64,000 bases of DNA from an uncultured Candidatus Rokubacteria bacterium (GTDB lineage: Bacteria > Methylomirabilota > Methylomirabilia > Rokubacteriales > DASRDR01): positions 128,001 through 192,000 of the forward strand of contig CAVPSB010000010.1 of NCBI GenBank assembly GCA_963708025.1, in the 5' to 3' direction. Shown here piece after piece: positions 4,096 to 51,044 of this stretch. Each line of letters starts with the position of its first letter. The first letter of the stretch is position 1. A program made the position numbers and the translations under genes. A model generated the notes under the pieces. That model was not told where the DNA came from. It searched no databases and worked only from the letters and a program-made list of their open reading frames with translations.

Positions 4096-6084
4096 ATGCC
4101 CCCCTTCCGCCTGATCTCCGACTATTCGCCGACCGGCGACCAGCCGCGGGCCATCCGTGAGATGACGCGGTGGGTCACGGGCGGGCGGCCCGACGTCGTC
4201 CTCCTCGGCGTGACCGGCTCCGGCAAGACCTTCACGGTGGCCTCCGTCGTCGCCGAGGTCCAGCGGCCCACGCTGGTCATCTCGCCGAACAAGACGCTGG
4301 CCGCCCAGCTCTACGGCGAGTTCAAGGCCTTCTTCCCGGAGAACGCCGTCGAGTACTTCGTCTCCTACTACGACTACTACCAGCCCGAGGCCTACATCCC
4401 GCAGACCGACACCTACATCGAGAAGGACGCCCTCATCAACGACGAGATCGACCGGATGCGCCACTCGGCCACCAAGTCGCTCTTCGAGCGGCGAGACGTG
4501 GTGATCGTCGCCTCGGTCTCGTGCATCTACGGGCTGGGGTCGCCCGAGACCTACCACAGCATGCACCTGGCGCTCGCCGAGGGCGAGGAGCGGGAGCGGG
4601 ACGACATCCTGCGCCAGTTGGTGGCGCTCCAGTACGAGCGGAACGACTACGACTTCCACCGCGGGACGTTCCGGGTGCGGGGCGACGTCGTCGAGGTCTT
4701 CCCGGCCTCCGACGACTCGGTCGCGCTCCGGGTCGAGCTGTTCGGGGACACGGTGGAGGCGATCTACCAGATCGATCCCCTGAAGGGCCAGGCGCTGGGC
4801 CGGCCCGGCCAGGCCGCCATCTACCCGGCCAGCCACTACGTGACGCCGGCCGAGCAGCTCGAGCGGGCGGTCGAGTCGATCAAGGTCGAGCTGGGCGAGC
4901 GGCTCGCGTACTTCCGGGCGCAGGGAAAGCTGCTGGAGGCGCAGCGGCTGGAGCAGCGGACACTGTTCGACCTCGAGATGCTCCGCGAGATCGGCTACTG
5001 CCACGGCATCGAGAACTACTCCCGCCACCTGGCCGGGCGGCGGGCGGGGGAGACGCCGGCCACCCTGATGGACTACTTCCCCAAGGACACCCTGGTCGTG
5101 ATCGACGAGGGCCACGTGACGGTGCCGCAGCTCCGCGGCATGTATCACGGCGACCGATCGCGGAAGGAAACGCTGGTCGAGTACGGCTTCCGGCTGCCGT
5201 CGGCGTTCGACAACCGCCCGCTCACCTTCGAGGAGTTCACCCGGATAGCGAGTCAGGTCCTCTACGTCTCGGCCACCCCGGGGGAGTACGAGCTGGCCCG
5301 GAGCGACGGGGCGGTCGTCGAGCAGATCATCCGGCCCACCGGGCTCATGGACCCCGAGATCGCGGTGCGGCCGGCCGGCGAGCAGGTGGACGACCTGCTC
5401 CACGAGATCCGCCTGCGGGCCGAGCGCGAGGAGCGGGTCCTGGTGACGACCCTCACCAAGCGGATGGCCGAGGACCTGACCGAGTATTACTTACAAATGG
5501 GGCTCCGGGTCCGCTACCTCCACTCCGACATCGACACCCTGGAGCGGGTCGAGGTGATCCGGGACCTCCGGCTCGGCAAGTTCGACGCCCTCGTCGGGAT
5601 CAACCTCCTCCGGGAGGGGCTGGACCTGCCCGAGGTCTCGCTGGTCGCGATCCTCGACGCCGACAAGGAGGGCTACCTCCGCTCCGGCACCTCGCTCATC
5701 CAGACCTCCGGCCGGGCCGCCCGGAACGTCCGGGGTCAGGTCATCATGTACGCCGACAAGATGACCGACTCGATGCGCTTCGCCCTTTCCGAGACCGAGC
5801 GGCGGCGCCGGATCCAGCAGGCCTACAACGAGGAGCACGGGATCACCCCGGAGTCCATCCGGCGGTCGATCCGGGAGGTGCTCCGCTCAGTCGAGGAGCG
5901 CGACTACTTCACGGTCGAGGTCGCGAGGCCCGAGGACCGCTTCGAGTCGGCCGAGGAGCTGGAGGCCGCGATCAAGCGGCTGGAGATTGAGATGAAGGAC
6001 GCCGCCAAGCGGCTCGACTTCGAGCGGGCGGCCGAGCTGCGGGACCGCATCCGGACCCTTCGCAAGGTGGACCTGACGGTCTAG
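4096..6084 (+). CDS. uvrB: Excinuclease ABC subunit B
   Basis: [51 protein letters not shown]-terminal UVR domain. Confidence 0.98.
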
Positions 6085-6217
6085 CGGGCGGGGCCGATGA
6101 GCGTCGCATCGCGTCGTCCGTCCGACGGCCTTCGGCCTTTGGGCGCTGCTCGCTCCTCGGCCCCGCCCCCGAGAGCTTGACTCATCTACCATGACTTTGG
6201 CGCGTCACGGAACCTAG
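6085..6217 (+). repeat. Family A structured intergenic element, copy 1
   Basis: gggcggggccgatgagcg...cgctcctcggccccgccc outer stem; CTAG at 6081-6084 and 6214-6217. Confidence 0.9.
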
Positions 6218-6227
6218 GCCGGCGCGT

Positions 6228-6257
6228 TTGCCCCGCCGGCGCGCCGGGGCATAGAAT
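6228..6257 (+). promoter_or_regulatory. Promoter of uvrC, probably leaderless
   Basis: TTGCCC, 18 bp, TAGAAT ending 5 nt before GTG 6263; no Shine-Dalgarno. Confidence 0.55.
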
Positions 6258-6262
6258 CGGGC

Positions 6263-8143: not shown

Positions 8144-8166
8144 CGCTCCGGAACGGCCCCCGAACC

Positions 8167-8195
8167 TTGCGTCGGGGCGCGATCTCTGCTAAAAA
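8167..8195 (+). promoter_or_regulatory. Promoter of leuS operon
   Basis: TTGCGT, 17 bp, TG-c-TAAAAT extended -10. Confidence 0.55.
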
Positions 8196-8230
8196 TCGAC
8201 GGGAATCCACCGAGGAGGTGCCCCCGGTCC

Positions 8231-10723: not shown

Positions 10724-11232
10724 CGTACCGGAGCGGTCTCGCCGTCATCCTCGCCCTGGTGGTCGTGGCCGGCGGCTGCGGCTACTCGCTCCGGCCGAGT
10801 CTCCCGGGCAACATCAAGACGGTTCACATCCCGACCCTCCAGAACCGGACGCAGGAGCCTGGCATCGAGGACTTCGTCACCCAGGCCCTGACCACCGCCC
10901 TGGTGACGAGCGGCGTCGCCCGGATCGCCCAGAACGCCGAGCAGGCGGACGCGATCCTCGGCGGCGCCATCGTCGAGTACACGCTCACCGCGCTCGCCTT
11001 CGACCGGACGGCGAACGTCACCCAGTATCGCCTCCAGATCGGGCTGGCGCTGACGCTCAAGGACCGCCGCAGCGGCGACGTCGTCTGGAAGCAGGACCGG
11101 ATCGGCGACCGGGCCGACTTCCCGGTGGCAGGCCAGGTGAGCACGACCATCGCCCTCGAGCAGGACGCCGTGCGCCGCGCCGCCGTCAACATCAGCCGGG
11201 CCATCATCAGCCTGGCCTTCGAAGGGTTCTGA
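10720..11232 (+). CDS. lptE: LPS assembly lipoprotein LptE family
   Basis: Lipobox-like VAGGCGY followed by KTVHIP..NRT.EPGIE; conserved leuS-lptE-holA order. Confidence 0.82.
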   Translation: MTYRSGLAVILALVVVAGGCGYSLRPSLPGNIKTVHIPTLQNRTQEPGIEDFVTQALTTALVTSGVARIAQNAEQADAILGGAIVEYTLTALAFDRTANVTQYRLQIGLALTLKDRRSGDVVWKQDRIGDRADFPVAGQVSTTIALEQDAVRRAAVNISRAIISLAFEGF

Positions 11233-11238
11233 GACTGG

Positions 11239-11597
11239 GCGCCGTGCCGATAACCTTCGCGACCTTCATCTCGGCCGTGACGCGCTCGGCCTGCGTCGAT
11301 CGGACGGCCTTCGGCCTGGGGGCGTCCGTCCCGGCCTATGGTCGTCCTCGGTTTCGGTCGGGACGCGCTCGGCCTGCGTCGATCGGACGGCCTTCGGCCT
11401 GGGGGCGTCCGTCCCGACCTCTGGGGTCGTCGGCGGGCCTCCCAGAAGGGAGCGACGTCCCGAGGGCCGCAGGTCCGAGGCGTCGCGACCAGATGGCCAA
11501 TCGCGGTATACGCCTCGGCCCGCCTCTTCCCTGCGTCGTTTGGACGGCCTTCGGCCTGCGGGGGCTGCTCGGTTCTCGGCCCGGCGCGGAGTTCTAG
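11239..11597 (+). repeat. Family A element, copy 2 (longest; internal tandem module duplication)
   Basis: gcgccgtgccgataacc...ggttctcggcccggcgc outer stem; near-identical units at 11271-11346 and 11354-11431; ends in CTAG. Confidence 0.9.
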
Positions 11598-11598
11598 G

Positions 11599-12618: not shown

Positions 12619-12633
12619 CGATCCTCTGGTCGC

Positions 12634-12915: not shown

Positions 12916-12965
12916 CGGATCACCTCCTCCTGATCAGATCGGTCGGTCGGTTGACGCAACCTCGG

Positions 12966-12994
12966 ACTCTATCGTGGGGGCGCCTGGGTGTCAA
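12966..12994 (-). promoter_or_regulatory. Promoter of rpsT
   Basis: Minus strand TTGACA, 17 bp, TAGAGT. Confidence 0.65.
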
Positions 12995-15125: not shown

Positions 15126-16024
15126 GGGGACATGCCCCGGCACCGGACCTCGTGGACGAGTTTCTCCAGAGTCTCCGGGTGGAGGACGGCGCCTCACCCC
15201 TGACCGTGAGCGCGTACCGGCGCGATCTCCGCCGGCTCGCCGCCTTCCTCGTCGCCCGCCACCGCGCCCTCGAGACGGCGGGTCCCGCCGACCTGGTGGC
15301 GCACCTGGGCGCGCTTCACGCCCGCGGGCTCGGGCCGCGCACCCGCGCCCGCCAGATCGCCGCCATCCGCGGCCTCTACCGCTTCGCCCGCGCCGCCGGC
15401 CGCATTGCCGACGATCCGGCCGCCCTGCTCGAGAGCCCGCGGCTGCCGCGCCGGCTCCCCCGCGCCCTCTCGCGGGCCGACGCCCAGGCGCTGGTCGAGG
15501 CCCCCGGGGGTGACGGTCCCCGCAGCCTGCGTGACCGCGCCATCCTGGAATTGCTGTACGGATCCGGGCTCCGGGCGTCCGAGATCGTCGGGCTGCGGCC
15601 CGGCGACCTCGACCTCCACGGGCAGTTCCTCGTCTGCCACGGCAAGGGCTCCCGCCAGCGGCTGGTGCCCGTCGGCGGCGAGGCGCGCAAGGCGCTGCGC
15701 GCGTATCTCGACCACGCGCGGCCGGTCCTCGTCCGCCGGCGGGAGCCCGACACGCTCTTCGTCAACCATCGGGGCCGGCCGCTGTCCCGGCAGGGGCTGT
15801 GGGGCCTCGTCCGCCGCTACGCCGGTCGCCTGGGGCTGCCCCGGGCGTTTCCGCACGCCCTGCGGCACTCCTTCGCGAGCCACCTGCTCGAGGGCGGCGC
15901 CGACCTGCGCTCCGTGCAGGCGCTGCTCGGCCACGCCGACATCGGGACGACCGAGGTATACACGCACCTGCCAACGGACGCGGTCCGGCGGATGTATCGC
16001 CGGTTTCACCCGAGGGCGGAGTAG
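15122..16024 (+). CDS. xerD: Tyrosine recombinase XerD
   Basis: RDRAILELLYGSGLRASE, HALRHSFASHLLEGGADLRSVQALLGHADIGTTEVYTH, C-terminal HPRA. Confidence 0.85.
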   Translation: MRGHAPAPDLVDEFLQSLRVEDGASPLTVSAYRRDLRRLAAFLVARHRALETAGPADLVAHLGALHARGLGPRTRARQIAAIRGLYRFARAAGRIADDPAALLESPRLPRRLPRALSRADAQALVEAPGGDGPRSLRDRAILELLYGSGLRASEIVGLRPGDLDLHGQFLVCHGKGSRQRLVPVGGEARKALRAYLDHARPVLVRRREPDTLFVNHRGRPLSRQGLWGLVRRYAGRLGLPRAFPHALRHSFASHLLEGGADLRSVQALLGHADIGTTEVYTHLPTDAVRRMYRRFHPRAE

Positions 16025-16252
16025 TGCCGTGCCGATAACCGTCGCATCCCGTCGTCCTCGGTCGTCGCCCATCCTCGGCGTATGCGGCATACGCCTGCGG
16101 TGGGCGACTCCCTGCGTCCTGGGGCTGCTCGGTTCTCGGCCCGCCTTGTGGCACTGTGACCCGAGCGATGCGGTCCGGCGGATGTATCGCCGGTTCCACC
16201 CACGGGCCGAGTGATGCGGATGTGCCGGCGGATCCACCCGAGGGCGACCTGA
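15977..16252 (+). repeat. Three copies of the xerD 3' end (15977-16024, 16167-16214, 16217-16252)
   Basis: Copies 1 and 2 both encode DAVRRMYRRFHPRAE*; copy 3 encodes RMCRRIHPRAT*. Confidence 0.92.
16023..16155 (+). repeat. Family A element, copy 3
   Basis: agtgcc...ggcact ends, gccgataaccg/cggttctcggc stem, gtcgtcctc...ggcgtatgcggcatacgcc...tgcgtcct core. Confidence 0.9.
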
Positions 16253-17988
16253 TGGTCGTGCGCCGCGCGACGTACCCCCAGGTGGAGCCGCGGGCGGGGG
16301 ACCTGATGACGCCGGCGGTGGCGGTGGCGCCGCGGAGGCTGACCCTGGCGGCGGCCGCCGTGCTCGCCCGCCGCCGCCGCGCGCGCTTCGTGGTCGCGCG
16401 GCTCGGATCCGGGTGGGGCGCGGTGACACGCCAGGTCCTCGAGCGCGCGCTGGCACTCGACCGGCGGCTCGGCCGGGCTCCGCTCGACCTGGTCCTCTGG
16501 GGCGCGCCCGTGGTTTCGGCCGCGACTCCCGAGGTGACGGTGCGCCGGGAGCTGGGACCGGCCACGCCGTTCGTGGTGGTATTCGGCGGCGGCGGGACGC
16601 CGCTGGGGGTAGTGTCGGGGGACATGGGGGCGCGACGGGCCCTCCCGCGCTCGGCGGTCGAGGCCCTGGGCCGGCTCGACCCGGGGACCCTCGAGCTCCT
16701 GCGAGCCGCCGGCCGGCTCGGGCCGGAGTCCGGCCAGCCGGTCGCCGCCGTCGGCGGGATCGTCCGCGACCTGCTGCTGGGACGCCTGACCGCGCCGCCC
16801 CGCGACCTCGACGTGGCCGTCGAGGGGGATGGGCGCCTCCTGGCCCGGCAGCTGGCCCGGGCCCTCGGCGGCCGAGTGCGGCAGCACGACGCCTTCCTGA
16901 CCGCGACGGTGACGCTCGCCGACGGGCGGAGGGTGGACGTCGTGACCGCGCGGCGGGAAGGGTACCGGCGACCGGGCGCGCTCCCCATCGTGGAGCCCGC
17001 CACGCTGGAGGAGGATTTGGGGCGCCGCGACTTCTCCATCAATGCCCTCGCGGTCCGCCTCGATGGCGACGCCTGGGGGCAGGTCCTGGATCCAGTGGGC
17101 GGGCTGGCGGACCTCGCGGCGCGGCGCCTCCGTGTGCTCCACCCGCTCTCGTTCGTGGAGGACCCGACCCGGATCTTCCGGGCGGCGCGCTTCGCGGCAC
17201 GACTCGGGTTCCGCCTGGAGACGGCGACCCGGCGGCTGCTGGTGGGGGCGGCGCCGCTCCCCGTGTACGAGGCGCTCTCCGGCGATCGGCTGATGGCCGA
17301 ACTGGACGCCATCCTCGACGAGCCGGCCCCGGCCGCCGTGCTGGCGGCGCTGAGCCGGCTGGGCGCCTTCCGGCTCGTCTTGCCCGGCTACCGGCGCTCG
17401 CCCGGGGCCGACACCGCCCTGGCCCGGGCGGCCGAGGCCGCGCGGGCCGCGCCATTGCCCCGCGACGTCGAAGCCGCGCTCGTCCTGCTCGCGCTGGGAG
17501 CCCACCTGCGGGGGGAGGCGGCCGAGGCCTGGGTCGCGCGCTGGGGCGTCCCCGCGCCGATGCGGGCGGCGATCGCCCGGGCTCGGGAGGAGGCGCCGGC
17601 GCTGGGGCGCCGGCTCGCCCGGGCCGCCGACGCGGGGGAGGCGTACGCGGTCCTGCGCGGCGTGCCGGTGCTGACCGCCGCGTGGGCCCATGCACGGGCC
17701 CGCGAGGCCCGCGGCCGCCGGCACGTCCTCGACTATCTCGGGGCGTGGCGCGCCCTGCCGTCGCTCCTGAACGGCGAGGACCTGAAGGCCCTCGGGCTGG
17801 CGCCTGGTCCGCTCTTCGGCCGGCTGCTGGCGGGTGTCCGGATGGCCCAGGTCACCGGGCGCGTGCGCACCCAGGCCGAGGCCGCGGCCTGGGTGCGGCG
17901 GACCCTGGTCGGGGCGAGCGGGGCGGGGACGGGCGGCGCGACTAACGGATCGAGTCCGGATCCGAAAGGAGGAGGCGTGTGGCGATGA
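16252..17988 (+). CDS. CCA-adding/poly(A) polymerase family nucleotidyltransferase with a degenerate CBS-like N-terminus
   Basis: [51 protein letters not shown] overlaps TGA of xerD-tail copy 3. Confidence 0.88.
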
Positions 17989-19598
17989 AGTACATCTTCG
18001 TGACCGGCGGCGTCGTGTCGTCGCTCGGCAAGGGACTGGCGGCGTCCTCGATCGGGTGCCTGCTGGAAGCCCGCGGCTTCCAGGTGACGCTCCTGAAGAT
18101 GGACCCCTACATCAACGTGGACGCCGGAACCATGAGCCCGTACCAGCACGGTGAGGTCTTCGTCACCGACGACGGCGGGGAAACCGACCTCGACCTCGGC
18201 CACTACGAGCGGTTCACGCGGGCCCGGATGACGCGGGACCACAATGTGACCACCGGGAAGGTCTACCACACGGTCATCACCCGGGAGCGGCGCGGCGACT
18301 ACCTGGGTCACACCGTCCAGGTGATCCCCCACATCACGGACGAGATCAAGGCGTCGATCCGCAAGGTGAGCCACGACGTCGACGTCGTCATCGTCGAGGT
18401 CGGCGGCACGGTGGGCGACATCGAGGGGCTGCCGTTCCTAGAAGCGGTGCGCCAGTTCAAGAAGGATGTCGGCAAGGAGAACGTGATCTACATCCACCTG
18501 ACGCTGGTCCCGTTCATCCAGGCCGCCTCCGAGCTGAAGACCAAGGCGACCCAGCACTCGGTGAAGGAGCTACGCGCGATCGGGATCCAGCCGGACATCG
18601 TGCTCTGCCGCACCGACCGCTTCCTGCCGCGGGGGATCAAGTCGAAGATCGCGCTCTTCTGCGACGTGGAGGAGGAGGCCGTCATCACGGCCAAGGACGT
18701 GGAGACGATCTACGAGGTCCCCCTCGTCTTCCACCAGGAGGGACTGGACGGCATCATCGTCAAGGCCCTGGGGCTGCCGTCCCGACCGATCGACCTCACC
18801 GCCTGGGAGGCCATGGTCGGCCGGATCAAGAATCCGGTGCGCACCGTCCGGATCGCGGTGGTCGGCAAGTACATCGAGCTCAAGGACTCGTACAAAAGCC
18901 TGGCCGAGGCGCTGACCCACGGCGGGATCGCCCACGAAGCGCGGGTGGACGTCCGGTGGACCGACGCCGAGCAGCTCCTGCAGGACGGGGCGGCGGCCCA
19001 CCTCGCCGACATCGACGGCGTGCTGGTGCCGGGCGGTTTCGGCGATCGCGGGATCGAGGGCAAGATCGAGGCCATCCGCTACGCCCGCGAGCACGGCATC
19101 CCGTTCCTCGGGATCTGCCTCGGGCTCCAGTGCGCCGTCGTGGAGTTCGCCCGGCGGGTGGCCGGGCTGGAAGCGGCCAATTCCGCCGAGTTCGATCGCG
19201 GCACGCCCTACCCGGTGATCGACCTCCTGCCGGAGCAGCGGGAGGTGGAGGACAAGGGTGGGACCATGCGGCTCGGGCTCTACCCGATCGCGATCGTCGA
19301 GGGCTCGCTGGCCCATCGCATCTACGGCACGCTCCAGATCGAGGAGCGCCACCGCCACCGCTACGAGGTCTCGAACGAGTACCGGCGGATCCTGGAAAAG
19401 AACGGCTTCCGGGTCTCGGGCATCTGGCCCGAGAAGCAGCTGGTGGAGATCGTGGAGCTGCCCGATCACCCCTGGTTCATCGCCAGCCAGTTCCACCCGG
19501 AGTTCCGCTCGCGGCCGTGGGCGCCTCATCCGCTGTTTGCCGGGTTCATCGGCGCCGCGGCCGCCCGCCGGGCAACGGCCAGCGGGCGGGGCCGATGA
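17979..19598 (+). CDS. pyrG: CTP synthase
   Basis: [44 protein letters not shown]; start GTG 17979 or ATG 17985. Confidence 0.98.
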
Positions 19599-19856
19599 GA
19601 CACCCTGTGTCAACCCTCTCGTTCCGCCGACCTCGTACCGCGTCGGGACTGTGGGGCGCCCCCCCTCCCCCCGGCGGGTGGGGAGGGGTCGGGGGTGGGG
19701 GTGGACCCCGATGAGCGTCGCCACGTTCATCTCGGTCGGGACGCGCTCGGCCTGCGTCGATCGGCCAGCCTTCGGCCTGGGGGCGCTGCTCGCTCCTCGG
19801 CCCCGCCCCCGAGAACGGGCTCGTCTATCGCCGATTCGGCGAATCAGGGACTCTAG
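19583..19856 (+). repeat. Family A element, copy 4, interrupted by a family B element
   Basis: cgggcggggccgatgag / cgtcgc...cgctcctcggccccgccc; ends in CTAG directly before the kdsA GTG. Confidence 0.9.
19600..19707 (+). mobile_element. Family B miniature element with 8-bp direct repeat CCGATGAG
   Basis: acaccctgtgtcaacc...gggtgggggtggacc flanked by ccgatgag at 19592-19599 and 19708-19715. Confidence 0.8.
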
Positions 19857-20687
19857 GTGACGGCGCCCGTCCAGATCGGCTCGATCCGGATCGGCGAGGG
19901 CGCCCCGCTGGCGCTGATCGCCGGCCCCTGCGCCATCGAGGACGAGGCCCACGCCCTTCGCACCGCCGAGCTCCTGGTCCGGGTCGCCGCCGAGGGCAAG
20001 GTCCCCTTCGTCTACAAATCGTCCTACGACAAGGCGAACCGCTCCGCCCTCGCCTCCTACCGGGGTCCGGGCCTTCGCGCGGGCCTGCGCATCCTCGCGC
20101 GGGTGCGGGAGGCCCTCGGCTGCCCGGTGCTCTCCGACGTCCACCTCCCCGACGAGGTGCCGGCCGCGGCGGAGATTCTCGACTGCCTCCAGGTCCCGGC
20201 GTTCCTGTGCCGGCAGACCGACCTGGTGGTCGCCTGCGGCCGGAGCGGTCGGCCCGTCAACGTGAAGAAGGGCCAGTTCATGGCCCCCTGGGACATGGGC
20301 AACGTCGTGGAGAAGCTCCGGGCCAGCGGGGCGACGGGGGTGACGCTGACCGAGCGGGGCGCGAGCTTCGGTTACAACAACCTGGTGGTGGACTTCCGGA
20401 GCCTGGCCATCATGCGGGGCTTCGGGACGCCCGTGGTCTTCGACGCGACCCACTCGGTGCAGCTCCCGGGCGGGGAGGGGACGCGCTCGGGCGGCGAGCG
20501 CCAGTACGTCGCGGCGCTCGCCCGGGCGGCGGTGGCCTTCGGCGTCGATGCCCTCTTCATGGAGGTCCACGAGGCGCCGGACCGCGCTCCCTCGGACGGC
20601 CCGACCATGCTTCCGCTGGCCGAGCTGCCCCGGCTGCTCGACGAGGTCCAGGCGCTCCGCGCGGTGTTGGCGAGGTCCGGACGATGA
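19857..20687 (+). CDS. kdsA: KDO 8-phosphate synthase
   Basis: IAGPCAIE, KSSYDKANRS, PAFLCRQTDL, NVKKGQF, ERGASFGYNNLVVD, FDATHSVQ. Confidence 0.97.
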   Translation: MTAPVQIGSIRIGEGAPLALIAGPCAIEDEAHALRTAELLVRVAAEGKVPFVYKSSYDKANRSALASYRGPGLRAGLRILARVREALGCPVLSDVHLPDEVPAAAEILDCLQVPAFLCRQTDLVVACGRSGRPVNVKKGQFMAPWDMGNVVEKLRASGATGVTLTERGASFGYNNLVVDFRSLAIMRGFGTPVVFDATHSVQLPGGEGTRSGGERQYVAALARAAVAFGVDALFMEVHEAPDRAPSDGPTMLPLAELPRLLDEVQALRAVLARSGR

Positions 20688-26419: not shown

Positions 26420-27343
26420 GTGACGATACCCGCCGAGCAGCCCCGGAGCGACGCGTCCCGTGCGACGGAGCGGGAGGACTCGGATCGCCTGCGCCTCATC
26501 ATCATCACGGGGCTGTCGGGCGCCGGCAAGAGCTACACCATCAAGTGCTTCGAGGACCTGGGGTACTACTGCGTCGACAACCTGCCCACGACGCTGATCC
26601 CCACGTTCGCCGAGCTGTGCGCCCATTCGACCCGCGAGATCCGGCGCATCGCCCTCGGCGTCGACATCCGGGAGGGCGAGTACCTCAAGCCGGTGGCCGA
26701 GGTCCTCGGCCAGTTGCGCGCGCGCGGCTACGCGACCGAGGTGCTCTTCCTGGAGGCGTCGGAGGAGAGCCTGGTCCGCCGCTACCACGAGACGCGACGG
26801 CGGCACCCGGTCAGCCCGACCCTCCTGGAGGGCATCCGCGCCGAGCGCCAGCTGCTGGCGCAGCTCCGGGAACTGGCCGACCGCGTGATCGACACCTCCC
26901 ACATCACCGTCCATCAGCTCAAGCAGATGCTGGTCGAGCTGTACGGCGAGCGGGAGGCCCGGCTGGGCCTGAACGTCAACCTAGTCTCGTTCGGCTACAA
27001 GTTCGGGGTTCCCTACGACGCCGACCTCGTCTTCGACTGCCGGTTCCTGCCCAACCCCTTCTTCGTCGAGGCGCTGCAGGCCAAGGACGGACGGGCGGCC
27101 GAGGTGCGCCGATTCGTCTTCGACCAGGCCGAGAGCCGCGAGCTGCTCGCGCGCCTCCGGGACCTGCTGGCCTATCTCCTGCCGCGCTACCAGCGCGAGG
27201 GGAAGGCCCACCTGACCGTCGCCGTCGGCTGCACCGGGGGTCGCCACCGCTCGGTCGCGCTCGTCGAGGAGCTGCGTGAGTTCATCGAGGCCCAGGGGTT
27301 GCCGGCGAGCGTGTCTCATCGCGACGTCAACCGCGAAGCGTAG
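26420..27343 (+). CDS. rapZ: RNase adapter RapZ / YvcJ family P-loop protein
   Basis: ITGLSGAGKS, CVDNLP, RRY.ETRRRHP, SFGYKFG, GCTGGRHRSV, HRD. Confidence 0.95.
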   Translation: MTIPAEQPRSDASRATEREDSDRLRLIIITGLSGAGKSYTIKCFEDLGYYCVDNLPTTLIPTFAELCAHSTREIRRIALGVDIREGEYLKPVAEVLGQLRARGYATEVLFLEASEESLVRRYHETRRRHPVSPTLLEGIRAERQLLAQLRELADRVIDTSHITVHQLKQMLVELYGEREARLGLNVNLVSFGYKFGVPYDADLVFDCRFLPNPFFVEALQAKDGRAAEVRRFVFDQAESRELLARLRDLLAYLLPRYQREGKAHLTVAVGCTGGRHRSVALVEELREFIEAQGLPASVSHRDVNREA

Positions 27344-27462
27344 CGGGGCGAGAAGCGTCGCCCAGCGTCGTCCTCGGTCGTCGCCGATCCTCGGCGTACT
27401 CGGAGTACGCCTGTGGTCGGCGACTCCCTGCGTCCTAGCTGGGCTCGCTTCTCGGCCCGCTA
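27341..27462 (+). repeat. Family A element, copy 5
   Basis: tagcggggcgagaagcg/cgcttctcggcccgcta outer stem that includes the rapZ stop; conserved core. Confidence 0.9.
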
Positions 27463-29614: not shown

Positions 29615-29991
29615 AGGTCCGTCCGGAGGACCTGCCGGTCCGCATCGACAAGCCCTGGGGACACGAGATCTGGTACGCCTGGACCGACCGGTACGTCGGC
29701 AAGATCCTCCACGTCAAGCGCGGCGGGAAGTTGTCGCTCCAGTACCACCAGCGGAAGGACGAGACGAGCTACGTGCTGCGGGGCCGCTTGCTGCTCACCA
29801 AGGGGCCGAGCGTGGACCGGCTGACCGTGACCGAGGTCGGCGAGGGGCACACTTGGCGGAACCGCCCCGGCGAGGTCCACACGATCGAGGGGCTGGAGGA
29901 CGCCGACATCCTGGAAGTCTCCACGCCGGAGCTCGACGACGTGGTGCGACTCCGGGACCTGTACGGCCGCGAAGGAACCAGCAACCCCTGA
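29611..29991 (+). CDS. Cupin, mannose-6-phosphate isomerase type II-like
   Basis: KPWG.E, LSLQYH..KDET, H.IE, EVSTPELDDVVRL.D.YGR. Confidence 0.85.
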   Translation: MKVRPEDLPVRIDKPWGHEIWYAWTDRYVGKILHVKRGGKLSLQYHQRKDETSYVLRGRLLLTKGPSVDRLTVTEVGEGHTWRNRPGEVHTIEGLEDADILEVSTPELDDVVRLRDLYGREGTSNP

Positions 29992-30225
29992 CGGGCGGGG
30001 CCGATGAGCGTCGCAACGTCGATCTCGGTCGGGACGCGCTCGGCCTGCGGCCTCGCGTCCGTCCCGACCTATGGTCGTCCTCGGTCGTCGCCCATCCTCG
30101 GCGTATGCGGCAGTACGCCTGCGGTCGGCGACTCCCTGCGTCTGTCGGACGGGCTTCGGCCTGTGGGCGCTGCTCGCTCCTCGGCCCCGCCCGAGAGCTT
30201 CGCTTCCGTGCCACGACTCTAACGG
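29992..30225 (+). repeat. Family A element, copy 6
   Basis: Starts at the base after TGA; outer stem plus all three internal modules; tail gagagctt...ccacgactct resembles copy 1. Confidence 0.9.
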
Positions 30226-30247
30226 TGTCGTCGGGGGTTCGTTCACC

Positions 30248-32779: not shown

Positions 32780-32850
32780 TCGGGGGGGTCTGGGAAGACC
32801 CCCCCGATGCCCCCTCGGTCGTGGCGGCGCCGAAGCCGCCGCTCGGCCAC
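32780..32850 (+). repeat. Family C double-hairpin element
   Basis: tcgggggggtctgggaagacccccccgatgccccctcgg...gcggc..cgaagccgcc; also at 39698-39765 (-) and 55553-55620 (+). Confidence 0.88.
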
Positions 32851-32951
32851 TCTTCATGGCTCACCTCGCACTGGACGCGACACGGCATCCTCCGGCGGGC
32901 ACGTAGGTCGCAGGAGGGCACGGCCCCTCTCCGCAGCCCCCCGCCGCGTGC

Positions 32952-34238
32952 GTGAGGCGTCGCCGCCACGCGCCGGGCGTCGAGCTCGAGCGCGAGGCCG
33001 GGAGGCCGGCGGCCGTGCGAGCTGAGCCCGGGGCCGCCCGGCGACTCCTCCCGCGGGGGCGGCTGGCCGCGATCGGCCTCGTCGTCGCGGTGCTCGGCGG
33101 AGGCTATGCAGGGGTGGCCCGCCTGGGTCCGCTCCCGGCGCCCCCGGACTGGCCGCCGGCGTCCGATCTGGCCGAGTACACGGCCGTCCTCCACGTCCAC
33201 TCGCGGTACTCGCACGACGGCCGCGGCACCGTCGAGGAGATCGCCGCGGCCGCGGCCCGGGCCGGGGCCCGCGTCGTCTTCCTGACCGACCACAACACGC
33301 TGGCGCCCCTCAAGGACGGCAAGGAGTCCTGGTACGGGCCGACCCTGATCCTGGTCGGGACCGAGGTCACCACCAACGCCGGCTATCTGCTGCTGCTGGA
33401 TCCCGACCCGAACGCACCGGTGGAGCAGCGGGGTGCGGACTTCGCCACGGTCTTCGCGCGCTACCGCCAAGCCGAGTCGATCGTGCTGCTGGCCCACCCC
33501 GATCATCCACGGCTCGGGTGGCGCCAGGAGAGCCTGCCGCCGGTCGACGGCATCGAGGTCGTCGACGTCTTCGACCAGGTCGTGGCGGCGCCCGTGCAGC
33601 GCCAGATGCTGGGCCTCTTGGCCTATCCGGCCAACCCGGTCATGGCGATCCTGTCGGTCGTCCACTGGCCGCGCCGGGTGCTGGAGAGCTGGGACCGCCT
33701 GGCCCGGGAGCGGCCGACCATCGGCGTCCTGGGGCTCGATGCCCACGGCGGGATCGAGCTGACCGAGGAGACCGGGGTGCGCTTCCCGTCGCACGAGACC
33801 GCGTTCCGGCTGGGCCAGCTCCACTTCGTGACCCCGGAGGCGCTGGGGCACGACGAGGCGGACCGGATCCGTGTCTATCGCTCGCTGCGGGCCGGCCGGT
33901 TCTACAATGCCTTCGACGGGCTGGCCCCGGCCGCCGGCTTCCGGTTCGAGGCGCGGCGGGGAAGCCCCCCGGAAGTCGCGCTGATGGGCGACACGCTGCG
34001 GTCCGGAGAGGGCTGGACCTTCGAGGTACGGGTCCCGCCGGTGGGGGAGACGGCGGTCCGGCTGCTCCGCGACGGCGTGGTGGTGCACGAGGCCCCGGGG
34101 CCCGGACCGATCCGGATCCCGGCCGACGCGGCCGGGGTGTACCGTGTGGAGGTGGACATCGGCGTGAATCTCTTCCCGATCACGACGGCCCGGCGCATGC
34201 CGTGGATCTTCTCGAACCCCATCTACGTGCGTCCGTGA
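32952..34238 (+). CDS. PHP-domain metallophosphoesterase with N-terminal TM anchor (start uncertain)
   Basis: HVHSRYSHDG, LTDHN, GTE, AHP, DAH metal-binding motifs; C-terminal WIFSNPIYV. Confidence 0.8.
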   Translation: MRRRRHAPGVELEREAGRPAAVRAEPGAARRLLPRGRLAAIGLVVAVLGGGYAGVARLGPLPAPPDWPPASDLAEYTAVLHVHSRYSHDGRGTVEEIAAAAARAGARVVFLTDHNTLAPLKDGKESWYGPTLILVGTEVTTNAGYLLLLDPDPNAPVEQRGADFATVFARYRQAESIVLLAHPDHPRLGWRQESLPPVDGIEVVDVFDQVVAAPVQRQMLGLLAYPANPVMAILSVVHWPRRVLESWDRLARERPTIGVLGLDAHGGIELTEETGVRFPSHETAFRLGQLHFVTPEALGHDEADRIRVYRSLRAGRFYNAFDGLAPAAGFRFEARRGSPPEVALMGDTLRSGEGWTFEVRVPPVGETAVRLLRDGVVVHEAPGPGPIRIPADAAGVYRVEVDIGVNLFPITTARRMPWIFSNPIYVRP

Positions 34239-35789
34239 CGACCACGCTCGGGTCGCCCGTCGCCGGACTCGACCGGCCGGCCGAGGGGGCGGAGGCGACG
34301 CGCTGGCTCTGGTTCTTCCTGGCCGCCGTGACCGCGCTGCGCGTGGCGTACCTGGCCTCCGGGCGTCTCGACCTTTCGCCGGACGAGGCCCACTACTGGG
34401 AATGGTCGCGCCGGCTCGACCTCGCCTACTACTCGAAGGGTCCGCTCGTCGCCTACGTGATCCGCGCCCTCACCGCCGTCCTCGGAACCTCGGCGCTGGC
34501 CATCCGGCTGGGCGCCGTGCTCCTCAGCCTGGCGGGCTCGCTCGCCATCTACCGGCTGGGACGTCTCGCGTTCGGCGACCCGCGGGCGGGGCTGCTGGCG
34601 GTGGTCGGGCTCCAGCTCACCCCGCTCTTCTGGGCTGGCAGCCTGCTGATGACCATCGATCCGCCGTTCCTCGTGCTGTGGCTGCTGGCGCTGATCGGCC
34701 TCTACCGGGCGCTGGTCGGCGGGGGTCCGGGGGCCTGGGTGTGGGCGGGGGTCGCCGTCGGCGCCGGCCTCCTGGCGAAGTACACGATGCTCTTCGTCCT
34801 GCCCGGTCTCGCGCTGTACCTCTGGCGGGCCCCCGAGGCCCGCACCTGGCTCTCCCGGGCGGCGCCGTACCGGGGGGCGATCGTCGCGGCGGCGCTCGTC
34901 CTGCCGGTGGTGGTCTGGAACGCGGGCCGCGGCTGGGTCTCGGCCCGTCACGTGGCGAGCCAGGGGCGCGGCGGCGGGCTCACCTGGATCGAGCCGCTCG
35001 AGTTCGTCGGCGGCCAGCTCGGGGTCCTCACCCCGCTCGTGGCCGGGATCCTGATCTGGGCGCTCTGGTACGGCATCCGCGAGGGGCTCGTCCGCGGGCG
35101 GGAGCCGTACCGGTTCCTCACGGCGTTCGCGGCACCCATCCTCGGCTTCTATCTGCTGCTCTCGCTCCAGGGGAAGGTCCAGGCCAACTGGCCCGCCGCC
35201 GCCTATCCGCCGCTGGCCCTGGTGGCGGCCGGGGCATTGCTCGAGCGGGCCGCGCCGGGTGACGCCCGCCGGCGGCGCCGCCAGCGCCGGCTCCTGGGCG
35301 CCGCCGCCGCCCTGGCCCTGACCGTGAGCCTGCTCGGCCACGCGGTCGACGTCCTCGGGGTCCCGCCGCGCCTCGACCCCACGACGCGCCTCCACGGCTG
35401 GCGAGCAACTCGGCGCCGCCGTGTCGGCGACCTGGCGCGCGATGCCGGCGCCGGAGCGCACCTTCCTCGTCTCCGACCGGTACCAGATCACCAGCGAGCT
35501 GGCCTTCTATGGGCCGCCCGCGCCGCCCGCGTATAATGTCAACCTGGGCCGGCGGCTGAACCAGTACGACTTCTGGGAGGGGCCCGATTCCCGTCGCGGC
35601 TGGGACGCCATCTACGTGCAGGAAGGGCTCGGCGCGCTGGACGAGCGGGTGGGTCGGGCCTTCGAGCGGACCGACGGGCCGGTCGTGGTCGAGGTGCGGC
35701 GCGGCGGCCGGCCGGTGCGGACGTTCGCCCTGTACCGTGGCTACGGGTTCCGGGGCTTCGCGGTACCCGACGGCGCACCCAGCTTCTAG
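34235..35789 (+). pseudogene. ArnT/PMT-like GT-C glycosyltransferase with a frameshift near 35402 (pseudogene or sequence error)
   Basis: PDEAHYWEWS..LD..YYSKGP, LAKYT, ANWPA; after LHGW one extra base, then EQLGAAV...YQITSELAFY...NQYDFW continues in another frame. Confidence 0.78.
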
Positions 35790-36017
35790 CGGGCGGGGCC
35801 GATGAGCGTCGCATCGCGTCGTCCTCCATCTCGGCCGGGACGCGCTCGGCCTGCGGCCTCGCGTCCGTCCCGACCTCTGGGGTCGTCGCCGATCCTCGGC
35901 GTACTCGGAGTACGCCTCCGGTCGGCGACTCCCTGCGTCCTAGCGCTGCTCGCTCCTCGGCCCCGCCCCCAGGGACGGGACTCGTCTGCCATGACTTTGG
36001 CGCTCCAGGGAAGCTAG
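35790..36017 (+). repeat. Family A element, copy 7
   Basis: CTAG at 35786-35789 and 36014-36017; outer stem as in copy 1; tail ccatgactttggcg shared with copy 1. Confidence 0.9.
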
Positions 36018-36026: not shown

Positions 36027-36818
36027 GTGAGCGGTCCGTCCCCGGTGCCGTCGCCGCCGTTGCTGTCGGTCGTGATCCCGGCCTACGACGAGGAGCCCAA
36101 CGTCGAGGCGTGCTACCGTGAGCTCGTCGACGTTCTGGCCCCCCTCGGGCAGCCGTTCGAGGTGATCTTCGTGGACGACGGCTCGACCGACGGGACGTTC
36201 GCCCTCCTGGCGCGGCTGGCCGAGGCGGACGGGCGCATCCGCGCCCTTCGGCTCCGGAAGAACGCGGGGCAGACGGCGGCGCTGGCGGCCGGCTTCCGGG
36301 CGGCCCGAGGCGACGTCGTGGTCACCCTGGACGCCGACCTCCAGAACGACCCGCGGGACATCCCCACGCTGCTCGGGGCGCTCCCGGGCTGCGACGCGGT
36401 CTGGGGGTGGCGCGTGAGCCGGCAGGACCCGTGGACCAAGCGGGTGGCGTCGCGGACGGCGAACGCCGTGCGGCAACACTTCACCCGGGACGGCGTGCAC
36501 GACACCGGCTGCCCGCTGAAGGTCTTCCGCCGGGCGGCGCTCGATCGCCTCACCCTCTACCGGGGCATGCACCGGTTCCTGGCCGCGCTGCTCCAGATGG
36601 AGGGCTTCCGGGTGCGCGAGGTCCCCGTGCGCCACCGGCCGCGCCACGCGGGTCACTCGAAGTACGGCAACTGGGGCCGGATGTGGGCCGGGCTGGCCGA
36701 CCTGTGGGCCGTCCGGTGGATGGCCCGGCGGCGCCTCGACTACGAGATCGCCGAAGAGGCCACGCAGGAGCGACCCCCAGCTGGGACACCCCCCCCGGTT
36801 GGAGAACGCCCACGATGA
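36027..36818 (+). CDS. GT2 polyprenol-phosphate glycosyltransferase (ArnC/DPM-like)
   Basis: SVVIPAYDE, VDDGSTD, N.GQTAAL.AG, DADLQNDP.DIP, DTGC.LK, HRPR.AG.SKY. Confidence 0.9.
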   Translation: MSGPSPVPSPPLLSVVIPAYDEEPNVEACYRELVDVLAPLGQPFEVIFVDDGSTDGTFALLARLAEADGRIRALRLRKNAGQTAALAAGFRAARGDVVVTLDADLQNDPRDIPTLLGALPGCDAVWGWRVSRQDPWTKRVASRTANAVRQHFTRDGVHDTGCPLKVFRRAALDRLTLYRGMHRFLAALLQMEGFRVREVPVRHRPRHAGHSKYGNWGRMWAGLADLWAVRWMARRRLDYEIAEEATQERPPAGTPPPVGERPR

Positions 36819-42118: not shown

Positions 42119-42219
42119 GCGGCGTCCTCGGTGGTCATTCTAGCAGGCGCCGCGTGCCGATCGGCCACCGGATCGCCCCCCGGCACCCGCGTCCGGAGCG
42201 GAATGCTACAATGACCCCC

Positions 42220-46356: not shown

Positions 46357-46382
46357 CACCGCGTGGGGGCGGCACCTATAAT
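46353..46382 (+). promoter_or_regulatory. Consensus sigma70 promoter of guaB-guaA
   Basis: TTGACA (46353-46358), 18 bp, TATAAT (46377-46382). Confidence 0.8.
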
Positions 46383-46536
46383 CTCCCAACATCTTGGGGG
46401 GTCGGGGCGGGGTGATCCCAACCGGTAGCGGAGCAGGCCGGAGCGTGGTGGGCCGAGGACGGAGCCGCCCTGGGACTCGGGTGGGACGACGGGATGCGAC
46501 GGCCATCGGCCCGGCGGCCTGAGGAGGACTGAGGGC

Positions 46537-47697
46537 ATGGGGATGTGGATCGGTCGCGGCCGCAAAGCCCGGATCGCGTACGGGTTCGACGACATCGCCC
46601 TCGTCCCGGGGACCGTCACGGTCAACCCGAGCGAGGTTGACGTGTCCTGGGAACTGAGCGGCCGGCGGATCGAGCTGCCGATCATCGCGGCGGCGATGGA
46701 CGGGGTGGGGGATCCGCGCTTCGCGGTCGAGATGGGCCGGCTAGGCGGGCTGGCCGTGCTGAACCTCGAAGGCATCCAGACCCGGTACGAGAACCCCGAG
46801 GAGGTCGTCGAGCGGATCGTCTCCTCCAGCCAGGAGGAGGCCACGCGCATCATCCAGTCGATCTACGGGGAGCCGATCAAGGAAGAGCTGGTCCACCGCC
46901 GCGTGAGCGAGATCAAGAAAGGCGGCGGCGCCGTCGTCGTCTCCGTGATTCCCCAGCGTGCGATGCGGTTCGCCAAGCTCGCCGAGGAGGCGGGGGCCGA
47001 TTTCTTCATCGTCCAGTCCACGGTCGCCACCGCCCGGCACCTCGCCACCGAGTACGAGCCGCTGGATTTCCGGAAGCTCAAGCGCGAGCTGACGGTGCCG
47101 CTCATCGTCGGCAACTGCGTCACCTACGAGGCGACGCTCGAGTTGATGCAGACCGGCGTGGATGCCCTGCTGATCGGGGTCGGTCCCGGGGCGGCCTGCA
47201 CGACCCGGGAGGTGCTGGGGCTGGGCGTGCCCCAGGTGACCGCGACCGCCGACTCGGCGGCGGCCCGTGACTTTTACTGGAAGCAGTCCGGCCGCTACGT
47301 CCCGATCATCACCGATGGCGGCATGACCACCGGCGGCGACATCTGCAAGGCCCTGGCGGCCGGCGCCGATGCCGTGATGATCGGCTCGGCGTTCGCCCGG
47401 GCGCTGGAGGCGCCGGGGCGCGGCTATCACTGGGGCATGGCCACGCCGCACTCCAACCTGCCGCGGGGGACCCGGATCCGGGTGGGCGTGGTGGGGCCGC
47501 TCGAGCAGATCCTGTTCGGGCCGGCCTTCACCGACGACGGCACCATGAACCTGATCGGGGCGCTCCGGACCTGCATGGGGTCGGTCGGGGCGCGCACGAT
47601 CCGGGAGTTCCAGCTCACCGAGCTGATCCTCGCCCCCACGATCAAGACCGAGGGCAAGGTGTTCCAGAAGGCGCAGCGCATCGGCATGGGCAAATAG
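46537..47697 (+). CDS. IMP dehydrogenase family protein, GuaB3 type (no CBS pair)
   Basis: [53 protein letters not shown]. Confidence 0.88.
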
Positions 47698-47745
47698 GAG
47701 GCGCGGCGGGCTCCGCGGCCGGGCCCATCGAAATGGAGATCCGGG

Positions 47746-49284: not shown

Positions 49285-49311
49285 GGGGTCCGTTCGGAGG
49301 GAGGACGGCTG

Positions 49312-50284
49312 ATGAGTAAGCTCGTCTTCGCGGCGGTCGTGCTCGTGGTCGGGCTCGGGCTGTACGGCGCGCTCCGGCGCCAGGCTGACCGGCTGCCGGC
49401 CGGCCTCCGCTCGCTCGGTCCGGGGCTGGTCCTGGTGCTCGCGATCGGGATCCCGGCCGCCATCCTGGCCTTCTCAGTGTTACGAATCATCCCGGCCGGC
49501 CAGGTCGGCGTGAAGGTCCTGTTCGGCCAGGTCGAAACCGTCCCCCTCCGGGAGGGGCTCAACCTGCTGTGGAACCCCCTCTACGACATCGTCACCATGG
49601 ACACCCGGGTCGGCCGCCACACGGCGAAGTACGACGCCGCCTCGAAGGACCTCCAGGCGGTTCACGTGGAGATGGTGCTCAACTACCGCCTCATTCCCGA
49701 GCGGGCGCCCGAGGTCTATCGCGGCATCGGGCTCGGTTACTCGTCGGTCATCATCGACCCGGCGGCCCAGGAGGTGCTGAAGGCCAACACGGCCATCCAT
49801 AACGCCGCCGAGATCCTGCTCAAGCGGCCGGCGATCAAGGCCGACATCCAGCGGGACCTGACGGTCTGGCTCGCCAAGTACGGCATCGAGTTGAAGGAGG
49901 CCGCCCTCGCCAACATCCGATTCGACCCCAATTACGAGAAGCGCGATCGAGGCCAAGCAGATCGAGGAGCAGAAGGCCGAGCAGAAGCGCTACGAGCTGA
50001 TCCAGGCCCAGCGCCAGGCCGAGATCGTGGCGGCCGAGGCCAAGGGCAAGGGGGACGCCGCGCGCGAGGAGGCCCGGGGCGTGGCCGAGGCCCTCCGGCT
50101 CAAGGGCGAGGCGGAGGCCACCTACAACGCGAAGGTCTCCTCGTCGCTGACCCCGGTCCTCATCCAGCAGCAGTACCTCGCGCGCTGGGACGGCCGGCTC
50201 CCGCAGTATAGCCTCGGCGGCAACGTCGTCCCGTTCCTCTCGATACCGGGGGGACCGGGCGAGCCGCGTCGCCCGGGCTCGTGA
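49312..50284 (+). pseudogene. SPFH/prohibitin family protein with a frameshift near 49942 (pseudogene or sequence error)
   Basis: IIPAGQVGV..LFG.V, AASKDLQ.V; removing one C after YEK restores AIEAKQIEEQKAEQ...WDGRLPQ. Confidence 0.82.
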
Positions 50285-50407
50285 CGGTCCGGCGCGGCCG
50301 CGACGGCGCCGGGTCCGGACCACGGACCGCCTCGCGCCGCCACCTGGGGCGGAGCGCCTCGGTCACGACGCCGGCGAGGGAATGACGGGCGGGGAAGGAG
50401 GCGGCAC

Positions 50408-50917
50408 ATGGAAGGCCTCGGACGGTGGTTCGTCGGCATCGCGTTTCTTTGGGTGGCGATCATCCTGCTGTGGGGACTGGCGGTGGGCGTCGATCAGCCC
50501 TACGCCTGGTTCAAGTGGGCCAAGGATTCCAGCGGCTACGGCTGGATGAACCCGGTCTGGCTGGGCCTGGCCCTCTTCGTGGTGCCGATGGGCATGCTGG
50601 TGTTCCTGCGCGACATCATGGGGGATCCGGGGCCCTCCTGGGTCAAGTGGGCGGCGCCCGGGACCTTCCTGGCGGTCTACGCGTTCTTCCTCCTCAACGT
50701 CCTCCCGGACCAGGGCGGCTCGTCTCTTTACTTCGGGATCGAGTCGACGATCAACCCGGCGGTCGCGACGCCGACGGCGGGGCTGGGCACCGTCAGCACG
50801 ACGAGCTGGCTGGCGCGGGTGGGGCTCACCATCGCCGTCCTCGGCGGGGTGCCGGCAGTCATCGGCGCCGTTGTCGGGATGATGGGGGGCTCCAAATCTG
50901 GGGCCCGCCGCCGTTGA
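50408..50917 (+). CDS. Hypothetical membrane protein (about 4 TM segments)
   Basis: AAGGAGG RBS, host-like codon usage, four hydrophobic stretches. Confidence 0.75.
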   Translation: MEGLGRWFVGIAFLWVAIILLWGLAVGVDQPYAWFKWAKDSSGYGWMNPVWLGLALFVVPMGMLVFLRDIMGDPGPSWVKWAAPGTFLAVYAFFLLNVLPDQGGSSLYFGIESTINPAVATPTAGLGTVSTTSWLARVGLTIAVLGGVPAVIGAVVGMMGGSKSGARRR

Positions 50918-50918
50918 C

Positions 50919-51044
50919 CGTCGCGGGGCGACACCCGTCGCCGCGGGTCGTCCTCGGGCCGGGCCGGTCCTCGGCGTATGCGGCATACGCCTCCGGCCGG
51001 CCCGGCCCTGCGTCCTACCGCGGCTCGGGTCTCGCCCCGCGACG
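50919..51044 (+). repeat. Family A element, copy 8 (most diverged stems, same fold)
   Basis: cgtcgcggggcgacacccg/cgggtctcgccccgcgacg outer stem with the invariant gtcgtcctc / tgcgtccta loop. Confidence 0.9.

Follow-up and report, generated by a model that had tools for sequence, protein, structure and literature searches.

The repeat described here, a long hairpin that stands directly behind stop codons, lies in a 64,000-nucleotide (nt) stretch of the draft genome of an uncultured Candidatus Rokubacteria bacterium (genome G000; the whole stretch, G000:C10:128001-192000, is referred to as the window), and its closest described counterparts are small structured elements of other bacteria. BOX elements of Streptococcus pneumoniae have the form boxA-boxB(n)-boxC, in which paired outer modules flank a variable number of inner ones; they have no transposase of their own, are intergenic and co-transcribed, and we know of neither stop-codon anchoring nor a cross-phylum core among them. 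Foldback MITEs (transposable elements of the miniature inverted-repeat type; e.g. Correia/NEMIS, ERIC and RUP) measure ~100-200 bp, have inverted arms, are non-autonomous, show insertion polymorphism and are transcribed into hairpin RNAs, and they possess a defined target duplication (e.g. TA) and a partner insertion sequence (IS) with the same ends. The attC sites of integrons are hairpins conserved in structure over sequence that lie directly behind an open reading frame (ORF) in a specific orientation and contain conserved unpaired bases, while mycobacterial interspersed repetitive units (MIRU) occupy intercistronic operon gaps, touching the stop and start codons of their neighbors, as tandem direct repeats with small coupling ORFs. 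Soil bacteria of the Rokubacteria type have yet to be brought into culture. Repetitive extragenic palindromes (REPs) are grouped by Di Nocera et al. 2013 (PMC3733652) into GTAG- and CGTC-tagged super-families that occur in more than 80 species, most of them downstream of genes; according to these authors, the TAG stop is a codon that GTAG termini 'often provide', and CGTC REPs are without a dedicated transposase. The RepRanger paper (PMC12306157) relates that ribosomes are considered to stall at REPs no more than 15 nt from a stop codon.

Compared with these systems, the repeat in the window belongs to a family that is abundant, structurally constrained and evolutionarily mobile, and that appears to be an undescribed family of non-autonomous repeats of the REP/BIME/BOX kind. 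We hold it rather probable that the family is a high-copy, modular foldback repeat that proliferates as a non-autonomous DNA element and inserts directly behind stop codons. Like BOX elements it is modular, with outer arms that pair and inner modules that vary in number, but its sequence and host are unrelated to theirs; like the foldback MITEs it has inverted arms and presence/absence polymorphism, but no partner IS was found. It resembles MIRU in occupying intercistronic gaps in contact with stop and start codons, yet its units are hairpins and a reading of them as ORFs is not clearly supported; unlike integron attC sites, it forms no cassette arrays and has no attC core sites, and its upstream genes are housekeeping genes. 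With REP, BIME and REPIN elements it shares the character of high-copy extragenic palindromes that for the most part follow genes, occupy unidirectional or convergent gaps and are probably co-transcribed, and with the GTAG REPs it shares a TAG-containing end tag able to supply the stop of an ORF as well as mosaic combinations of units (PMC3733652). Because TAG-supplying REPs and near-stop E. coli REPs are already described (PMC3733652, PMC12306157), contact with the stop codon is not new in kind. What is new is the size and modular grammar of the family, its degree of anchoring and co-orientation, the absence of RAYT and the cross-phylum core. Its units form one long irregular hairpin of 83-670 nt with an invariant loop, whereas REPs measure 20-40 nt; RAYT is missing from six element-rich genomes, and the core is common to several phyla; the stop is no more than 4 nt away in 164 of 187 copies, whereas 446 of 4,072 predicted REPs of E. 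coli stand within 15 nt of one (PMC12306157).

The family is large and follows a modular grammar. G000 is a draft of 8.17 Mb in 49 contigs (71.2% GC; completeness 99.67%, contamination 8.18%), and blastn with the window elements returns 407 merged loci over 35 contigs that total 53,029 bp, about 0.65% of the genome (53 kb of 8.17 Mb). There are 218 complete copies (68-671 nt, median 152.5), and a covariance model, on which the bit scores and E-values given here for members of the family are based, finds at least 150 matches. Truncated copies (46 orphan left arms and 18 orphan right arms) exist alongside nested ones. Each complete copy is a single irregular hairpin made of two arms, an internal loop and inner hairpin modules. 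The arms pair over about 17-20 bp and contain a T·C mismatch in 200 of 217 copies; a second helix inside the arms is followed by a pyrimidine-rich internal loop that reads GTCGTCCTCGG on its 5' side and CCCTGCGTCCT on its 3' side, both invariant across 43 aligned copies. The loop encloses from 0 to about 20 small hairpin modules in fixed order, namely a B hairpin, a D hairpin of 21 nt whose loop is TTCG, a C hairpin and a rarer E module; the C hairpin corresponds to the third stem and apex of a first-pass annotation of the window. Architectures among 217 copies include C alone (62), BDC (22), DCD (22), BDCD (21), DC (18), CD (13) and D alone (9). An extreme copy of 597 nt (G000:C15, + strand, from 314219) has 18 tandem 21-nt TTCG-loop D modules between its arms. 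In the main subfamily the right arm often bears a ~55-nt 3' tail with a terminal CTAG, which a strict pattern finds in 47 of 190 right arms. Although the two arms are nearly reverse complements of each other, the element is asymmetric, because the model scores 140.9 bits on the forward strand and 39.7 bits on the reverse. Of the 61 simple copies 58 are distinct, and the nearest neighbor is at least 99% identical for 13 of them, 95-99% for 23 and below 95% for 25.

The first-pass annotation, made from the window alone, had reported eight copies, all in the orientation of their gene and starting 0-6 nt past a stop codon or overlapping it. Sequence inspection bears out this description, with all eight on the + strand, and blastn of the eight elements against the genome gives exactly eight loci in the window; the covariance model adds a degenerate, reverse-oriented ninth copy (46450-46512, - strand). 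Beyond that annotation, the family proves to be modular and spread over the whole genome. The annotation had recognized no named family, and none emerged: Rfam 15 yields no match in the window at gathering thresholds, and four copies searched at E up to 1 gave a chance miRNA match of 17.6 bits as their sole hit. Supplementary files aside, no published description was found in the literature on REPs, stop codons and hairpins, in that on Rokubacteria repeats, or by motif strings. The covariance model could itself become an annotation family.

Most copies of the family in G000 are anchored to a stop codon. With coding frames assigned from GC3 periodicity, the gene upstream of the element (n=217) is a same-strand coding region in 187 cases, an opposite-strand one in 11 and unclear in 19. 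In 164 of the 187, the end of the stop falls between -4 and +4 nt from the base at which the modelled stem begins; 11 others are TGA codons at +15 inside the arm, as at pyrG, and 12 lie elsewhere. Within the left arms of the main subfamily, a stop sits at one fixed position in 97 of 183 copies (88 TAG, 5 TGA, 4 TAA), and 87 of these 97 close an in-frame ORF of at least 100 codons; GC by codon position upstream of the fixed-position stops is 0.69/0.50/0.915. TAG is over-used: the 187 copies employ 123 TAG, 57 TGA and 7 TAA, as compared to 1629 TAG, 3372 TGA and 273 TAA in the 5274 genes of the genome, so that roughly 1 in 13 called TAG-terminated genes (123/1629) carries an element. The base before the TAG in the 183 main-subfamily copies is C in 75 and G in 59. 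Two models of random insertion were compared with these counts. If elements inserted at random into 3' ends and brought their own stop, the TAG frame should be used about as often as the +15 TGA frame, whereas the observed counts are 164 vs 11; if any TAG outside genes were a target, about 10% of copies should stand at stop codons, as about 10% of the TAGs outside coding spans are stops of called genes (1629 vs 15344 other TAGs). Because both models fail on the counts, either targeting to the stop or strong selection for the stop is indicated. The other end of the element can also meet a gene: of 33 copies that bear a tail and are followed by a gene on the same strand, 18 have the earliest possible start of that gene at -1 to +12 nt from the CTAG, and in some copies a tail AAGGA sits where the ribosome-binding site of the next gene would be.

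Three further accounts of the stop contact were tried and dropped. An outer stem that reaches through the stop codon is uncommon, since two or more stop letters lie within the stem in only 16 of 170 copies. A small bridging ORF that begins at a left-arm ATG ends at the tail TAG in 22 of 48 copies, as compared to 11 of 48 for the other open frame, which is unconvincing. A recoding or readthrough signal of the SECIS/PYLIS type does not fit the spacing of the flanking TAGs, which are 133 nt apart and out of frame at uvrB and 228 nt apart and in frame behind the ORF ending at 35789, nor the element lengths, whose differences are not in every case divisible by 3.

The fold of the family is under constraint, be it as RNA or as DNA. 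Two alignments were analyzed: A1 holds 43 copies (3 from the window and 40 from elsewhere in G000), for which RNAalifold gives 38 pairs, and A2 holds 26 rows from other metagenome-assembled genomes (MAGs) that were fitted to the model and therefore lean towards the structure. In A1, 19 of the 38 pairs show changes on both sides; paired cells amount to 97.7% vs 83.2% in shuffles and 32-45% in slid controls, and the covariation score is 0.342 vs 0.097 in shuffles, with 0 of 500 shuffles reaching the observed values. In A2, with its lean towards the structure, both sides change in 31 of 38 pairs, and 90.2% of cells are paired vs 67.0% in shuffles, while the internal loop stays fixed across phyla. 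At least seven versions of the variable stem occur, every one of them paired, and the covariation therefore exceeds what two inherited subfamilies would produce. The helices inside the loop never vary, so that covariation there neither supports nor refutes their pairing. Folded singly, window copies reach RNA-fold z-scores between -3.7 and -8.4. Folding of the antisense strand equals or surpasses that of the sense strand, and G·T and A·C mismatches (29 vs 48) are without strand bias; because both strands fold and the mismatches show no bias, RNA and DNA are not separated by these tests. Every stem variant quoted by the first-pass annotation is present in the sequence, and the unpaired loop that it called nearly invariant is fixed in A1 as in A2. 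Its conclusion that selection acts on a single-stranded fold is supported so far as selection on a fold, or its maintenance, goes (19/38 pairs, 0/500 shuffles), be it as RNA or as DNA, both strands folding about equally.

Comparison of orthologous sites demonstrates that elements come and go on the timescale of genera, tight operon junctions included. Synteny with five genera of the same family is kept around the window copies. The uvrB-uvrC site holds the element in G000 and a shorter copy of another subtype in G005, and is empty in G001, G003 and G006, which keep a TAG stop, and in five genomes of genus g5, which have TGA. At the lptE site, where CTGG stands on both sides, only 5-6 nt separate the genes in G002 and G006, a 29-nt remnant lies between two TAGs in G001, and the gap measures 180 nt in G005 and 370 nt in G000. 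The xerD site has 8 nt in G003, a reverse-oriented copy in G001, G002 and G005, and a forward copy in G000; the rapZ site is empty with TGA in G001 and G002, and shows TAG plus element in G000. A truncated copy is found at the cupin site of G002, the site behind the ORF at 50408-50917 is empty in G003, and the ninth copy is absent from all five relatives compared. Presence/absence polymorphism was thus found at uvrB, lptE, xerD, rapZ, 46356/46537 and 50917, with the site empty in 1-5 relatives. The empty sites for which the first-pass annotation proposed to look thus exist, and the mobility that it suggested fits these differences in occupancy, the 13 of 61 simple copies with a neighbor at least 99% identical, and the truncated and nested copies.

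The family extends well beyond G000. The model matches 35 of 41 relatives of the order, with per-genome counts listed up to at least 83, and, within the phylum Methylomirabilota, 77 of 121 genomes at an E-value of 1e-5 or lower, a tally that includes two unpublished genomes, G074 and G085 (75 of 119 without them). In all five single-copy genomes, the element stands directly behind the TAG of a long ORF; in genus g45, two genomes or more have this gene in common, and in genus g44 the gene differs between the two genomes. A two-sided pattern of the loop finds at least 68 stretches in a collection of species genomes. The model was run on 35 of these and matches 28 over their full length, at 98-125 bits in Rokubacteria or Methylomirabilota and at 33-70 bits in Acidobacteria, Terriglobales, Gemmatimonadales, Solirubrobacterales, Gaiella and other Thermoleophilia. 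The remaining seven, which have no model match at E 0.001, are treated as unproven (Pikeienuella, Polyangium, Stellaceae, one Acidobacteriales, two Gemmatimonadota and one uncultured). MAGs of Actinomycetota, Acidobacteriota and Gemmatimonadota thus carry the family as well, with 1-13 model matches each, on large contigs. Anchoring outside the phylum is found at 15 of 27 titled loci (one borderline) and at 3 of 20 further copies in four genomes of other phyla, and many of these further copies lie inside longer palindromes. A scan of viral contigs found no stretch of the family, and a blastn search of a plasmid collection found no match. In low-copy genomes of other phyla, the neighbors of the elements are unrelated housekeeping genes, and no cognate gene emerged from them.

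The proliferating foldback repeat that we favor would behave as follows. The element would insert right behind a stop codon, the main subfamily beginning with or duplicating the TAG; it would mostly be co-oriented and co-transcribed with the upstream gene, and it would persist where its position harms neither that gene nor the next. Pairing would be kept because a trans-acting machinery would recognize the folded single strand, and transposition may be the process by which copies multiply. With its invariant loop, its stems that covary freely, its strict position at stops and its lack of a RAYT, the family is a good test case for the spread of palindromic repeats without a known transposase.

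Several observations weigh against such an element. No mobilizing enzyme came to light, nor any candidate for the protein encoded elsewhere by which the first-pass annotation had inferred the element to be recognized; that annotation proposed to look for copies beside an HUH/RAYT, IS110, IS5-like or DUF559 gene. Y1/RAYT, searched as PF01797, and TnpB, searched as PF07282, each have no match in G000, a genome 99.67% complete, and PF01797 has none in the other five element-rich genomes (G001, G002, G003, G005 and G006). Seven IS110-type matches (one under the Pfam cut-off) and three weak Y2-type matches exist in G000, of which 1 of 10 lies within 3 kb of an element and none adjoins one. No left and right arms 0.7-8 kb apart enclose a gene, and no full-length IS with the same termini was found; further transposase families were not searched. 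Nor is a clear target-site duplication seen: TAG...CTAG flanks the tail-bearing subfamily only (47/190 right arms), and the G005 uvrB copy displays none. In soil-metagenome contigs from four runs, no clean empty-site joint was found at the strain level, as the contigs break at elements; two joints at the cupin site skip 344-354 nt, and their sides are short, with undetermined letters between. The summed depth of such contigs is many-fold higher over elements than over flanks, and elements evidently split MAG assemblies. Some sites are occupied in more than one species, as two Solirubrobacterales MAGs have one orthologous site in common and at least two g45 genomes another, and sites common to species could reflect a retained function. 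Finally, the orientation bias of 187 vs 11 is not explained by the termini, because the arms are near reverse complements; the bias therefore points to a strand-specific mechanism or to selection at the RNA level.

The last point favors the alternative that the element is primarily an RNA device useful to its host at the end of a cistron, its copy number being due to selection as opposed to selfish spread. Such a device might act on the terminating ribosome and tune the upstream protein, shield the 3' end of the mRNA, hide or expose the C-rich right arm to Rho, or assist initiation of the next gene via AAGGA. Besides the orientation bias, it would account for a position that in 164 of 187 copies varies by no more than 4 nt, for an internal loop invariant over four phyla, for the start codons -1 to +12 nt from the tail CTAG in 18 of 33 cases and for the orthologous sites kept between species. 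In E. coli, moreover, a REP no further than 15 nt from a stop is reported to make ribosomes stall and to reduce translation (PMC12306157, citing an earlier study), and the family could serve to test whether hairpins at stops influence translation in hosts other than E. coli. Against such a device, the wobble and A·C mismatches (29 vs 48) are without strand asymmetry, and the antisense strand folds no worse than the sense strand. Housekeeping operon junctions vary greatly in occupancy, anchoring weakens outside the phylum (3/20 in four genomes), the 46 orphan left and 18 orphan right arms are truncated copies, and the bridging small ORF is not clearly conserved (22/48 vs 11/48). We consider a primarily host-useful device unlikely.

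A further reading, which we regard as improbable, is that a module with an invariant loop, common to at least four phyla, has in one phylum been installed in sense orientation at stops with near-nucleotide precision, either by expression-guided insertion or as a functional device. In the first variant, insertion could be directed, for example, into single-stranded DNA exposed just behind the terminating ribosome, which would explain position and orientation without a long target sequence. In the second, the module could influence termination, the 3' end of the mRNA or the coupling with the gene that follows, and be read by a conserved protein.

A strict REP/REPIN system, in which doublets of GTAG-tagged palindromes are mobilized as single-stranded hairpins by RAYT, a Y1 HUH transposase, is very improbable. 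It would fit the (N)TAG tag that abuts the stem on its 5' side (TAG in 88 of the 183 copies of the main subfamily), the high-copy, extragenic and hairpin-forming character of the repeats downstream of genes, and the report of GTAG REPs as suppliers of TAG stops (PMC3733652). Against it, PF01797 was found in none of the six element-rich genomes; in genus g5, which is poor in elements, 9 of 15 genomes have it, and their Y1 genes have unrelated ends, with no copy of the element on either side. The Y1 gene of G010 (L161, G010:C8:3163002-3166331) is bounded by its own 18-nt inverted repeat, at about 1390-1420 and 2385-2405; this unit is RAYT-like and unrelated to the family, the model reaching only 20.5 bits nearby. 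Moreover, the units measure 83-670 nt, not 20-40 nt, and a G does not always precede the TAG (of 183 copies, 59 have G there and 75 have C). Hardly any weight is given to attC-like recombination sites, structure-conserved hairpins behind ORFs that a tyrosine recombinase recognizes in folded form, for although the elements stand directly after the stop in the orientation of the gene and have covarying stems around conserved unpaired bases, a fixed mismatch and a central part of variable length, their upstream genes are core housekeeping genes in conserved synteny and not cassettes, no GTTRRRY/RYYYAAC-type core is seen in the arms (judged by eye), and the copies are scattered over 35 contigs and not arrayed, an integron integrase not having been searched.

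The eight copies in the window, all on the + strand and with best model E-values down to 1e-32, far beyond what chance would give, illustrate the range of the grammar. Only three have the simple 124-nt form (arms plus C hairpin), and the other five differ in their inner modules. The first of the simple copies (16022..16146; 137.2 bits) follows a xerD-type recombinase gene, with the TAG at 16022-16024 and the element from 16025. At rapZ (27341..27462; 140.9 bits), the TAG at 27341-27343 pairs with a CTA at the far right end. The third (50915..51044; 109.3 bits), in which outer, second and third stems are all compensated, is located behind the ORF at 50408-50917, where the TGA occupies 50915-50917 and the stem begins at 50920. 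The uvrB copy (6082..6217; 53.3 bits, E 6.9e-11) has its TAG at 6082-6084 and starts at 6085; arms around one UUCG-hairpin (D) module span 6085-6172 and are followed by a 45-nt tail whose terminal CTAG is at 6214-6217. The lptE copy (11230..11597) is a composite of modules B-D-B-D-E-D in which a 6-nt spacer separates the TGA (11230-11232) from the outer stem at 11239, and which ends in a short tail with terminal CTAG. In the pyrG copy (19583..19856), the pyrG TGA (19596-19598) lies inside the left arm, which contains an insert and is followed by B/D modules, the right arm and a tail with terminal CTAG, adjoined by a GTG at 19857. The cupin copy (29989..30231) has its TGA at 29989-29991 and starts at 29992; it is composite (B, C and D modules), with a degenerate tail. 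The copy behind the ORF at 35421-35789 (35787..36017) has its TAG at 35787-35789, starts at 35790 and contains B and C modules, and the terminal CTAG of its tail is 10 nt upstream of a GTG at 36027.

The gene names given upstream of these copies stand in most cases, as Pfam supports UvrB, LptE, Phage_integrase (XerC/D type), CTP synthase and RapZ; the cupin identity rests on a weak Pfam match, and the ORFs at 50408-50917 and 35421-35789 have no Pfam match. The 'ArnT-like' name calls for a caveat: the PMT_2 glycosyltransferase ORF (window 33518-35789 region) ends at 35536, and a 122-codon ORF that overlaps it in another frame ends at 35789. This ORF could be a separate small gene or the frameshifted C-terminus of the PMT_2 ORF.

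The ninth copy (46450..46515, - strand; model match 46450-46512, E 4e-5) is degenerate and not anchored to a stop, and has the reverse orientation within the 5' leader of the gene that begins at 46537. This leader (46357-46536) is conserved in all five relatives, with TTGACA and TATAAT-like boxes, a stretch reading CCCAACATCTTG that is likewise conserved and, as ribosome-binding site, GAGGAGG, and the reversed repeat is inserted into it in G000 alone.

Behind the xerD-type copy, the 3' end of the recombinase gene (15977-16027) is repeated twice, at 16167-16217 and 16205-16255, with 86% and 65% identity (family D11, 16167..16255, + strand). The displaced copy ends in GAGTGA, as relatives do, while the working copy ends in GAGTAG plus element. 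As a general signature of insertion, a displaced 3' end of the upstream gene was rejected, since it is clear in only 1 of 217 copies, that at xerD, and two others are just 14-nt matches. Within the pyrG left arm, a 109-nt repeat unrelated to the family (19600-19708) forms a long C-run/G-run hairpin and is bounded by direct repeats of CGATGAG (19593-19599 and 19709-19715). About ten further copies of it occur in the genome with similar GATGAG / AATGA flanks, and it has the look of a small element that prefers targets of its own. A second repeat pair in the window, 60 nt long and 82% identical (32821-32880 and 55594-55653; family D16), is also unrelated to the hairpin family.

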